A stretch of DNA of 64,000 nt from Bacteroidota bacterium (GCA_016721435.1 JADKIC010000003.1:117102-181101); one strand, 5' to 3'; numbered from the stretch's first letter, positions 46,660 to 47,991 are shown. The notes: generated from the sequence alone by a model not told the origin. Made by a program: numbers and translations.

Positions 46660-46735
46660 GCGAAAGTAGCTCAGTTGGTAGAGCACGACCTTGCCAAGGT
46701 CGGGGTCGCGAGTTCGAATCTCGTCTTTCGCTCCA
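46660..46735 (+). tRNA. tRNA-Gly (anticodon GCC), CCA encoded
   Basis: Cloverleaf: acceptor GCGAAAG/CUUUCGC, anticodon stem CGACC/GGUCG, loop UUGCCAA, T-loop UUCGAAU; preceded by TAttTTTG -7 box. Confidence 0.9.
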
Positions 46736-46738
46736 AAA

Positions 46739-46764
46739 AACCTCCCATACAGGAGGTTTTTTTA
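46739..46764 (+). terminator. Terminator hairpin after tRNA-Gly
   Basis: CCTCC-CATACA-GGAGG + T7. Confidence 0.55.
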
Positions 46765-46781
46765 TTTATTATAGTTTGCTC

Positions 46782-46843
46782 GGTCGGGGTCGTCTCGTCA
46801 AGTCAATTTATTGACTTGACGAGAAATCTCGTCTTTCGCTCCA
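46782..46843 (+). other. Partial 3'-half copy of tRNA-Gly with 33-nt palindromic insert replacing the T-loop
   Basis: GGTCGGGGTCG + [TCTCGTCAAGTCAAT tt ATTGACTTGACGAGA] + AATCTCGTCTTTCGCTCCA matches the anticodon-stem-to-CCA part of the upstream gene except for the insert. Confidence 0.7.
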
Positions 46844-46969
46844 AAAAAGCTTCCATTGTTAGAGGCTTTTGAAGTTAATATTCACTTTTCATCGAGATTT
46901 CTATTACTTTTGCACCTCTCAAACATTTCCCAAAATTCTGAATTCTTAATTCTGAATTCTTAATTACCC

Positions 46970-47053
46970 GCCCGGGTGGTGGAATTGGTAGACACGCAGG
47001 ACTTAAAATCCTGTGGCCTTACAGCTGTACGGGTTCGACTCCCGTCCCGGGTA
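46970..47053 (+). tRNA. tRNA-Leu (anticodon UAA), long variable arm, no CCA encoded
   Basis: GCCCGGGUGGUGGAAUUGGUAGACAC..CAGGA CUUAAAA UCCUG..ACGGG UUCGACU CCCGU CCCGGGU A; TActTTTG -7 box upstream. Confidence 0.85.
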
Positions 47054-47165
47054 CAAAACAGAGCGAAGAAACAGAACCAGAGCGATGTTTCAAGCTCTGT
47101 TTTCCCTGCTCACTCGCACTGTATCCTCGCTCTTAAATAGTATCTTAATTATAAATCCCTTTTCA
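47054..47165 (+). repeat. Copy 1 of about 110-bp direct repeat following tRNA-Leu (copy 2 at 47611-47725; degenerate copy 3 at about 47870-47985)
   Basis: caaaacagagcgaagaaacaga..gctctgttttccctgctcactcgcact..cctcgctcttaaatagtatctta..cccttttcaaa repeated at more than 85% identity. Confidence 0.7.
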
Positions 47166-47230
47166 AAATAAAATCTTGAACCAACCACCTTTTTAATTAA
47201 AAGAGTTTCTCAAAAAGCACTTTCAATCCA

Positions 47231-47485
47231 ATGAAATATCACGTATATGCTTTATCAAGCACTGTTAGAAATTATATTTATGTAGGGTTAACAAGTGATT
47301 TAGACCGAAGACTAAGGGATCATCAAAATGGATATAATCCAACTACAAAACCATATAGACCATTTGAATTGATTTTATTGGAAGAACATGAAACCAGGGT
47401 ATTGGCAAGAGAGAGAGAAAAGTATCTTAAAACCAGTGCAGGAAAGAGATGGCTGCGTAGTCATAAAGTAAATATTAAATCATAG
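47231..47485 (+). CDS. GIY-YIG nuclease-family small protein
   Basis: 84 aa; YVYALSS...YIYVGLTSDLDRRLRDHQNG matches the GIY-YIG core; its stop overlaps the start of a partial tRNA-Leu copy. Confidence 0.7.
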   Translation: MKYHVYALSSTVRNYIYVGLTSDLDRRLRDHQNGYNPTTKPYRPFELILLEEHETRVLAREREKYLKTSAGKRWLRSHKVNIKS

Positions 47486-47610
47486 CTGTACGGGCCTGCC
47501 TGACTGCCCACAATGAGAACCAAGAAATTAAAACAAGTATAGATTGGTTGATGTTTATAGTTTTTAAAATAGTCGGCAGGCAGGTTCGACTCCCGTCCCG
47601 GGTACAAAAC
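47484..47610 (+). other. Partial tRNA-Leu 3' copy (variable arm to acceptor end) interrupted in the T-stem by a 91-nt insert
   Basis: AGCTGTACGGG | CCTGCCTGACTGCCC...GTCGGCAGGCAGG | TTCGACTCCCGTCCCGGGTACAAAAC. Insert ends are complementary (CCTGCCTGAC / GTC-GGCAGG) and the flanks reproduce the tRNA-Leu 3' part. Confidence 0.65.
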
Positions 47611-47991
47611 AGAGGGAGAAACAGAGCGAGAGCGAAGTTTTAAGCTCTGTTTTCCCTGCTCACTCGCACTCTTCCCTCGCTCTTAAATAGAATCTTACTA
47701 TACATCGTTTTTCAAACTAATATTATCATGTTTCTATATCTAGTCCTTTGGTCTAAAAAAAATCCCATATTCCAGTCCTGAAAATTCCTTTGCACTGTAG
47801 CTTCTTCTCGATTCATCCTGGTTTCTCAATTCAAAACAATCTTCTACCCATAAAAACCGAGAACGAGTAACAGAACGGAGGAACAGATTGTTAAATACCA
47901 GAAAAGAGTTCCATATTCCCTTTCCTATAATACTATATATTTGCACTTAGATAGTATCTTGCCATAAACCCTTTTTCAAACCTACAATCTT

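Follow-up and report, generated by a model that had tools for sequence, protein, structure and literature searches.

The stretch of DNA analysed here, 64,000 nucleotides from a Bacteroidota bacterium (GCA_016721435.1 JADKIC010000003.1:117102-181101; hereafter the window), contains a compact locus in which two tRNA genes are each followed by a displaced partial copy of themselves, and in which a small GIY-YIG nuclease gene lies between the second tRNA gene and its partial copy. The locus is flanked by mutS (43987-46614) and by a secreted M43 peptidase gene on the opposite strand (48353-52111), and the tRNA genes, their partial copies and the nuclease gene are all on the plus strand. ARAGORN found exactly two tRNA genes, an intact tRNA-Gly(GCC) (46660-46735; 70.5 bits with the Rfam tRNA model) and an intact class II tRNA-Leu(UAA) (46970-47054; 59.5 bits), the latter being the copy that stays functional. 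Both are preceded by promoter-like TAnnTTTG boxes, a motif that we take to point to Bacteroidota, and tRNA-Gly is followed by a terminator hairpin at about 46742-46766.

Downstream of tRNA-Leu, the first copy of a 110-bp sequence (spacer A1, 47055-47165, delimited by repeat comparison) leads to the GIY-YIG gene, whose TAG stop codon overlaps the beginning of the partial tRNA-Leu copy. This copy opens with AGCTGTACGGG (47484-47494, tRNA positions 54-64), which spans the variable arm to the 5' strand of the T-stem, is then interrupted by a palindromic insert, and resumes with the 3' piece TTCGACTCCCGTCCCGGGTAC (47585-47605). The segment from the T-loop to the 3' end (47585-47606) runs directly into a second spacer, A2, which ends at 47725 and is colinear with the single spacer of strains that lack the whole structure. 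The two spacers are 90% identical over 81 nt, and a third copy, 73% identical, is found at 47943-48001, which bears out the duplication of about 110 bp downstream of tRNA-Leu described in an earlier note on this DNA. Spacer A1 also holds a hairpin, AAAACAGAGC...GCTCTGTTTT, and a remnant resembling the region upstream of the four-helix-bundle gene that follows at this locus. The insert itself (47495-47584) is 90 nt long, reads CCTGCCTGACTGCC...(62 nt)...AGTCGGCAGGCAGG, and lies between the 5' strand of the T-stem and the T-loop. Its two ends, CCTGCCTG at the start and CAGGCAGG at the end, are mutually complementary, and the fold stability of the insert as a whole is not unusual (z = -1.7). The start CCTGCCTG recurs at four of the loci compared below (L031, L010, L066 and L077), and a variant, CCTGTCTACCGACAGGTAGA, at three others (L005, L009 and L036). 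Compared in this way across the family, the insert is a signature palindrome with an expanded AT-rich centre, that is, a locally loop-expanded form of a conserved family palindrome, and not a random insertion.

The partial tRNA-Gly copy, together with a degenerate copy of the terminator, occupies 46782-46872, as delimited by repeat, palindrome and strain comparison. It consists of a 5' piece, GGTCGGGGTCG (46782-46792, tRNA positions 39-49), a palindrome (46793-46824) and a 3' piece, AATCTCGTCTTTCGCTCCA (46825-46843, tRNA positions 58-76), after which the degenerate terminator copy follows. The palindrome, TCTCGTCAAGTCAAT-TT-ATTGACTTGACGAGA, is 32 nt long, with 15-nt arms around a central TT, and stands in for 8 nt (CGAGTTCG) that make up the 5' strand of the T-stem and most of the T-loop. 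In the arms of the palindrome the 7 outermost nt (TCTCGTC and GACGAGA) repeat the 3' strand of the T-stem, and the structure as a whole is equivalent to a tandem duplication of 108 bp whose T-loop carries a palindrome. This palindrome occurs once in the window, where chance alone would give 0 matches, and folds strongly as DNA (-15.7 kcal/mol, z = -6.3). Its topology is that of the Leu fragment, but its palindrome is unrelated and it is accompanied by no gene. Both partial copies claimed in the earlier note are therefore real, as are the palindrome in the one and the complementary insert ends in the other, with sizes that were slightly off: the tRNA-Gly palindrome, given as 33 nt, is 32 nt long and replaces tRNA sequence rather than being purely inserted, and the Leu insert had been given as 91 nt. 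Both fragments are without the 5' half of the tRNA. Neither is recognised as a pseudogene or as an intron-containing tRNA, as had been suggested for checking: ARAGORN and Rfam (E <= 10, 45500-49000) gave no tRNA score for either, no Rfam intron family was matched in 45500-49000, and no intron match fell on 46782-46872 or 47484-47606. The Rfam search of that region returned, beyond the intact tRNA genes, chance microRNA-like matches only, on palindromic repeats at 48216-48365.

The nuclease gene (47231-47485) is a free-standing open reading frame that no intron or intein encloses, with the tRNA-Leu spacer on one side and the tRNA fragment on the other. It encodes 84 aa and matches Pfam PF01541 with 60.8 bits against a cut-off of 22.6 (E = 1.6e-16), in agreement with the GIY-YIG gene that had been noted between the first two copies of the region downstream of tRNA-Leu. 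Across 34 homologues, residues Y17, R27, H31 and E63 are invariant and V5-Y6 nearly so, and a TTKPYRPF motif, specific to this nuclease subfamily, is invariant as well. The AlphaFold2 model (predicted local distance difference test score, 91.7) has the elements E-E-H-E-H-H and the beta-beta-alpha-beta-alpha fold of GIY-YIG domains. Its nearest folds, by Foldseek, are UPF0213 BH0048, followed by Slx1 and HIGLE, which cut branched DNA, and then the catalytic domain of I-TevI; sequence matches to solved structures concur, and are weak (E = 0.008). With the catalytic residues conserved and a confident fold model, the nuclease is probably active. The protein is Slx1/UPF0213-like and consists of the catalytic domain only, with no separate DNA-binding domain of the kind found in I-TevI and SegB. 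A profile search recovered 3,119 cluster representatives at E <= 1e-10, and the relatives among the 150 matches listed are nearly all 76-140 aa long. A role in anti-phage defence was considered and set aside, as PADLOC returned no defence-system match for the nuclease or for the neighbouring four-helix-bundle protein.

Close relatives of the source organism carry this locus with and without the structures. Two public assemblies, L001 and L002, encode an identical GIY-YIG protein, and two further loci, L242 and L238, were found via MutS. L002 (99.4% identical DNA) has the same structure as the window, with the Gly fragment and one GIY-YIG unit, and L001 (98.8% identical DNA) has the Gly fragment and three tandem units of about 550 bp each. 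Every unit in L001 comprises the tRNA-Leu T-loop, the spacer, the nuclease gene, AGCTGTACGGG and the insert, and its second and third nuclease genes share one frameshift. Because the structures occur in these two independent assemblies, they are not an assembly artefact. L242, with a MutS 99% identical and the same flanking genes, and L238, also with a MutS 99% identical, each carry single genes for tRNA-Gly and tRNA-Leu, followed by a single terminator and a single spacer respectively; in neither is there a GIY-YIG gene, a CCTGCC palindrome or a Gly fragment. In a global alignment of the window with L242 the flanks are near-identical, and the window has an extra 108 bp (the Gly fragment) and an extra 551 bp (one nuclease unit). 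The Gly and Leu structures are insertion or duplication polymorphisms within one species-level lineage, and the presence and absence of the gene at the same site in close relatives is of the kind expected for a free-standing homing gene. The empty site that the earlier note had proposed to look for thus exists, with nuclease gene, palindrome and fragment missing together. Its alternative of decayed tandem tRNA genes is not supported, since these near-identical strains carry single tRNA-Gly and tRNA-Leu genes, and for the same reason the proposal of a site-specific process stands. Three more distant loci (L239-L241, MutS 81-83% identical) were tried as empty sites and rejected as too rearranged, with tRNA-Leu inverted or replaced.

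Some further observations concern the same locus. A perfect 14-bp tandem duplication (two copies of AATTCTGAATTCTT) lies at 46934-46961, directly 5' of tRNA-Leu, and the stretch that holds it (46844-46965) diverges from L242 far more than the flanks do. L240, from a related species, has at this locus (7205-8000 and 8173-9435) a 97-bp tandem duplication of the tRNA-Gly segment from T-loop to terminator, with neither palindrome nor nuclease gene; it also has a reversed 3' fragment of tRNA-Leu with spacer, adjoining a tyrosine integrase, and it contains many REP (repetitive extragenic palindromic)-like hairpins with GNRA-like loops. The tRNA-Gly/tRNA-Leu region appears to be a general insertion hot spot.

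The same arrangement recurs well beyond this lineage. A scan with one genome per species yielded 80 loci encoding nuclease relatives of 51-66% identity, in Bacteroidota, Ignavibacteriota, Balneolaceae, Patescibacteria and one metagenome-assembled genome labelled Gammaproteobacteria. A same-strand tRNA gene lies within 250 bp of the nuclease gene or gene array in 67 of the 80, and 8 more are ended by contig ends. The neighbouring tRNAs are class II, 62 of them Leu (TAA, CAA, CAG, GAG and TAG) and 6 Ser. Two mirror-image forms can be distinguished. In form II, to which the window belongs, the tRNA is upstream and a partial copy of the same tRNA, starting from the anticodon loop or variable arm, lies 3' of the gene; the palindrome falls exactly between the 5' strand of the T-stem and TTCRA in 22 of 29 evaluable loci, the remainder mostly having a variant palindrome in the T-arm. 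In form I the tRNA is downstream, a partial 5' copy of it precedes the gene, and the palindrome interrupts the D-arm behind linear position 15 or 24, in Ser behind 17 and in a few loci behind 9. This fixed junction, along with the joint absence in empty strains, agrees with the earlier suggestion of a site-specific process linked to the GIY-YIG gene. Nuclease loci with partial copies always keep one intact tRNA, and the partial copies match the local tRNA, isoacceptor-specific arms included. The palindrome consensus is CCTGCCTGCCGGCAGGCAGG, 19-22 nt, with CCTGTCTACCGACAGGTAGA as a common form-II variant. Among 36 form-I loci, 28 have the strict motif on the far side from the intact tRNA, and none has it on the tRNA side alone; in form II it scores in 10 of 32, the rest being mostly variant. 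Tandem arrays of nuclease genes occur in at least 12 other loci, and in L014 and L041 the repeat includes a copy of almost all of tRNA-Leu, in which D-loop and T-loop both carry palindromes.

Several observations were made along the way on these loci and their contigs. In L245 (1501-1600) the called 112-aa product starts inside the partial tRNA copy, and its first ~34 residues are therefore probably spurious. Many homologue-bearing contigs (L008, L013, L026, L028 and others) are very short or end at the cassette; one of 913 bp has three copies of the gene, its coverage being more than double that of a larger contig in the assembly of a sister species, and another, of 638 bp, encodes a 96%-identical protein. 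This suggests that the arrays break short-read assemblies, so that copy numbers are underestimated. A different kind of displaced tRNA 3' end occurs in L059 (2536-2630 and 2729-2815): downstream of each of two tRNA-Lys genes lie some 75 nt that end in GAAGTCGAAGGA, after which the final 16-17 nt of the tRNA are repeated, with no nuclease gene between.

The closeness of gene and tRNA at these loci could also be read in terms of RNA function, with the partial tRNA and its hairpin serving as a functional element of the nuclease transcript (a tRNA-like 5' or 3' untranslated region for processing, stability or regulation) or as the RNA partner of the protein, in a conserved host operon that is not mobile. 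The gene is always co-oriented with the tRNA and tens of bases away from it, and its stop or start abuts tRNA-derived sequence; in L031 (Algoriphagus boseongensis, 3230-3240) the TAA anticodon of the partial copy doubles as the stop codon of the nuclease gene. One palindrome variant, G8A with C13T in L011, is fully compensated. Asymmetric palindrome variants, however, occur in both orientations relative to the gene, which suggests a symmetric site at the level of DNA, and the 5' partial copies are without a 3' half, so that no tRNA-like fold is possible in them. There is likewise no Rfam family match, the fragments have no tRNA score, the structure is present or absent between near-identical strains, and some of the tandem copies are frameshifted. 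We accordingly give this reading little credence.

In our judgement the structure at tRNA-Leu rather likely marks the edge of a minimal nuclease cassette of the GIY-YIG type that stands free beside class II tRNA genes. The cassette is probably selfish, and its best reading is as a homing-endonuclease-like element. The full unit in the window consists, in order, of the tRNA-Leu segment from T-loop to 3' end with the 110-bp spacer, the 84-aa nuclease gene, the 11-nt tRNA piece and the palindrome. Relative to the empty site, it sits between the T-stem and the T-loop of the tRNA gene, so that an intact tRNA-Leu is regenerated upstream and the displaced 3' end, split by the palindrome, is left downstream. 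Comparison shows the cassette present or absent in near-identical strains, in 0 to 3 copies, and the architecture recurring in many phyla on Leu and Ser tRNAs in its two forms. As to mechanism, the nuclease would break DNA at or near the loop-coding position where the palindrome sits, and the break would be repaired by recombination with a cassette-bearing copy, which would install the unit. We propose that the unit is copied in because the partial tRNA pieces give homology and that, with the target regenerated each time, repeated cutting or unequal crossing-over between the 145-bp direct repeats would build arrays. Our confidence in the specific cutting step, which is deduced from sequence, is lower than in the explanation as a whole. 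We rejected a variant in which a circular element integrates ends-in after a double-strand break at the palindrome, as it predicts that the palindrome is lost from the copy that actually carries it.

A number of points weigh against this explanation. All of the mechanistic steps are drawn from comparison of loci. The protein is, judged by its sequence, without a DNA-binding domain to account for sequence specificity, and classic homing immunity appears not to apply, since an intact target stays beside the nuclease gene: the partial copy is split by the palindrome, yet an intact tRNA of the same sequence adjoins the gene. Presence and absence among strains could reflect loss via the 145-bp direct repeats, not gain, and for the pieces to be identical to the local tRNA, they must have been generated on the spot at insertion or homogenised afterwards by gene conversion. 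The neighbour-joining protein tree mixes Leu isoacceptors, Ser and both forms, which implies switching between target tRNAs, and this can be called suggestive, a tree of 80-residue proteins being weak. The link between the Gly fragment and the nuclease has to reckon with an unrelated palindrome sequence and comes from co-occurrence in five haplotypes. Among the matches listed, a nuclease gene lies within 200 bp of the exact 20-mer CCTGCCTGCCGGCAGGCAGG in 7 of about 160 occurrences, and anywhere in the fetched DNA at 11 of 155 loci. With the 20-mer mostly away from any nuclease gene, the palindrome has a life of its own, wider than that of the cassette, and cut site, element end, homology breaker and independent parasite are all candidate roles for it.

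This wider distribution is what gives weight to the possibility that the palindromes are independent, tiny mobile or recombinogenic elements that colonise dispensable, hairpin-forming DNA, with the GIY-YIG gene as a bystander or an in-trans mobiliser, and with partial tRNA copies that arise by ordinary duplication and are merely permissive targets. The exact 20-mer was found at 35 viral-contig loci and at least 120 metagenome loci, at least 155 in all (L083-L237), in DNA of 29-71% GC and mostly with neither nuclease gene nor tRNA; among the matches listed, most occurrences are in unrelated intergenic or repeat contexts. Some contigs, L103 among those concerned, carry it within larger repeats, with 4-14 near-copies (e.g. 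IMGVR_UViG_3300037242_000417), and like miniature inverted-repeat transposable elements and REPs it exists in multiple dispersed conserved copies. Flanking direct repeats of at least 7 nt show a modest enrichment (3.7% of sites against 0.1% of controls). The whole second tRNA-Leu copies of L014 and L041, with palindromes in D-loop and T-loop, fit such independence too, as do the partial tRNA-Gly copies with unrelated palindromes in the window and in L039. What this possibility leaves aside is that nuclease gene, palindrome and duplication are jointly absent in the empty-site strains, and that in most nuclease-linked copies the strict motif or its variant is at a fixed junction, away from the intact tRNA. 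In an unbiased scan GIY-YIG was, moreover, the sole recurrent protein family beside the 20-mer, at a density of roughly 11 genes per Mb that looks enriched, both among the matches listed. Nor do the palindromes show a general preference for the tips of pre-existing hairpins, a candidate rule that was rejected with adjacent stems of at least 4 bp at 5.5% of sites and 4.7% of controls. Overall, we regard independent palindromes as a rather unlikely source of the structure.

At several of the loci with the exact 20-mer (L114, L190 and L196) it is located in D-loops of partial Lys, Val or other tRNA copies, by a nuclease gene. Two phage loci (L084, position 8616, and L107, position 2284) have a tRNA-Met with the 20-nt palindrome in the variable region; the 92-nt sequence is still called a tRNA by ARAGORN, and no second intact copy is present in the fetched stretch. 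The phage tRNA-Met may tolerate the hairpin as an artificial long variable arm.

A broader form of the cassette reading, which we consider possible and put forward with some doubt, is that of a phylum-spanning class of autonomous selfish cassettes of ~0.3-0.55 kb, each made of a gene for an Slx1-like GIY-YIG catalytic domain alone and the 20-bp palindrome, in which the palindrome would be mobilised by the nuclease and the cassette would re-home at D- or T-loop positions of tRNA genes. Targets would chiefly be class II Leu and Ser tRNAs, with the tRNA regenerated on insertion and never destroyed, so that tandem arrays could be built up by re-homing, and the palindrome would be a dispersible 20-bp element common to bacteria of 29-71% GC and their phages.

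The tRNA-Gly fragment needs separate consideration, since it shares the topology of the Leu fragment and is found on all 3 nuclease-bearing haplotypes (the window, L001 and L002) and on neither of the 2 empty ones (L242 and L238). On the basis of this topology and co-occurrence, it is most likely a by-product of a break on the nuclease haplotype: an off-target or collateral cut at the equivalent T-loop position of tRNA-Gly may have been repaired by a local 108-bp duplication with fold-back synthesis of the palindrome. An unrelated slippage event is a live alternative origin for this fragment. Extended to the whole locus, slippage would mean that replication slipped or switched template at tRNA hairpins within a recombination hot spot and so gave ordinary tandem duplications, with the nuclease uninvolved and the palindromes as fold-back by-products. 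The Gly event, a simple 108-bp tandem duplication whose palindrome arms copy the T-stem, is readily accommodated in this way, as are the 97-bp tRNA-Gly 3'-end duplication of L240 with neither palindrome nor nuclease gene, the rearrangement of the locus in every relative examined and the presence of other palindromic tandem arrays in the window. Slippage leaves unexplained, on the other hand, why a palindrome of the same family is at the same junction in dozens of unrelated genomes, why a nuclease family is strictly associated with Leu and Ser tRNAs, and why there is a mirror-image D-arm form; as an account of the whole locus it is in our view unlikely. A comparable structure was seen in L039 (2170-2210), where a partial 5' tRNA-Gly copy upstream of the intact gene has its D-loop AGCT flanked by a perfect palindrome, TTCCGAT-AGCT-ATCGGAA. 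This is a second tRNA-Gly fragment with a loop palindrome that is not of the CCTGCC type, again at a locus with Gly, Leu and GIY-YIG.

Displaced tRNA 3' ends are a classic signature of elements that target tRNA genes with a tyrosine integrase, and the earlier note had mentioned such footprints while finding no integrase. The second of these statements holds: neither within the unit nor next to it is there an integrase, be it in the window, in L001 or in L002. Footprints of the attL/attR type, left by an element whose integrase is encoded elsewhere or lost, would be in keeping with L240, in which a tyrosine integrase lies beside a 3' fragment of tRNA-Leu at the same locus. The footprint reading itself fares badly, as the direct repeat runs 110 bp past the tRNA and is not limited to an att core, the 551-bp unit holds the 84-aa nuclease gene only, and a compact architecture with tens of bases between gene and fragment is seen in ~60 loci. 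We would give it scarcely any probability.

Comparison with known systems places the cassette close to several of them. Its closest tested analogue is phage SegB, a longer protein with a DNA-binding region. This free-standing GIY-YIG nuclease, encoded in the tRNA cluster of T4 and T6, has its cleavage motif, RAWTSGAAC, within tRNA genes, and the tandem amplification of a 718-bp unit of tRNA and segB needs nuclease activity and homologous recombination and runs through short tRNA homology at the 3' end of the gene (PMC13096335). We read the RAWTSGAAC motif as T-loop-like. Both systems have a GIY-YIG gene among tRNA genes, outside any intron or intein, and the 551-bp unit of the cassette, comparable to the 718-bp unit of SegB, joins the 3' part of a tRNA to a nuclease gene, with tRNA-derived sequence at the 3' end of the gene; in the cassette the number of tandem copies is 0-3, depending on the strain. 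SegB was recovered in our searches only at E = 0.002-0.009, via generic homing-endonuclease families. Unlike SegB, the cassette protein is 84 aa of catalytic domain only, with UPF0213 and Slx1 as its nearest folds. The cassette resides on the chromosomes of bacteria from several phyla, keeps to Leu and Ser tRNAs, leaves behind a partial tRNA copy that a conserved palindrome divides, and has a mirror-image form, all of which are undescribed for SegB.

In fungal mitochondria, free-standing GIY-YIG and LAGLIDADG genes bring a replacement 3' end and leave the original fragment downstream, as in Allomyces atp6, and these genomes also hold palindromic elements of the GC-cluster or double-hairpin kind. 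The likeness extends to the regenerated intact gene, the nuclease gene, the displaced partial copy and the co-occurrence of small GC-rich palindromes; the mitochondrial systems differ in having protein-coding organelle targets, no known fixed palindrome position in the displaced fragment, and larger nucleases with DNA-binding domains. By sequence and fold, the closest proteins are those of the Slx1/UPF0213 group (BH0048, EF2693 and E. coli YhbQ), which agree with the cassette nuclease in size, fold and catalytic residues. Similarity is nevertheless weak (E = 0.008), and the cassette nuclease has its own invariant TTKPYRPF motif. Dunin-Horkawicz et al. (2006; PMC1564403) described the small proteins of the Slx1 cluster as a minimal form of the domain and reported no tRNA linkage, palindrome or mobility for the Slx1/UPF0213 group.

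Like integrative elements that target tRNA genes, the cassette shows an intact tRNA followed by a displaced copy of its 3' part; unlike integrase islands, it has no integrase, a unit of 0.3-0.55 kb, a repeat that continues past the tRNA, a copy split by a palindrome, and a form with a 5' copy. With REPs and bacterial interspersed mosaic elements (BIMEs), as with the intervening sequences of 23S rRNA, it shares short, GC-rich intergenic palindromes and complementary-ended insertions in the loops of RNA genes; genes of the PF05635 family belong to such intervening sequences, and a PF05635 gene is the next cassette at this locus. It differs in that no REP-associated tyrosine transposase was found as a recurrent neighbour, in the spread of an exact 20-mer across genomes of 29-71% GC and phage contigs, REPs being lineage-specific, and in that the functional tRNA itself is never interrupted. 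The literature covered contained no description of a cassette of GIY-YIG gene, tRNA and palindrome, and with most subscription journals outside that coverage a prior description is possible.

If the cassette explanation is true, bacterial chromosomes harbour a further type of autonomous mobile element, one of very small size, and the explanation would account for "GIY-YIG nuclease family protein" genes beside Leu and Ser tRNAs, for short high-coverage contigs and assembly breaks at cassette loci, and for open reading frames with spurious N-terminal extensions that read into tRNA fragments. The principle of SegB would then reach from T-even phages to the genomes of Bacteroidota, Ignavibacteriota, Balneolaceae and Patescibacteria. 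A bacterial family of unknown function, the UPF0213/Slx1-like proteins, would also gain a substrate hypothesis, namely loop positions of tRNA genes together with a defined palindrome. The identical 20-bp palindrome in very different genomes and phages raises the separate question of the agent that spreads it.

Beyond the GIY-YIG unit, the window has a third, degenerate spacer-like copy (47870-47985), which is the upstream region of a four-helix-bundle (PF05635) gene (47992-48276), both on the plus strand. PF05635 is the protein family of 23S rRNA intervening sequences, and the gene is a neighbouring small-gene cassette outside the GIY-YIG unit. In L242 and L238 it is intact (114 aa), and in the window it is ended after about codon 50 by palindromic tandem repeats of 55-56 nt (48140-48360; 3-4 copies), each with a 22-nt palindrome, GTGACAGGTCGCGACCTGTCAC. 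Small-gene cassettes vary between strains in the slot 3' of tRNA-Leu: L238 (7889-9045) has PF05635 twice in tandem, each time after spacer-like sequence, L242 (7600-7944) has it once, and the window has one shortened PF05635 copy with the GIY-YIG unit. In its 3' half, the tRNA-Leu spacer looks like the start (ATGTTYC) of the PF05635 gene and the sequence preceding it, which gives the impression of an older, decayed cassette at that place. A second GTGACAGGTCGCGACCTGTCAC array, with a 53-nt period and 4.4 copies, lies between convergent genes at 63203-63436.

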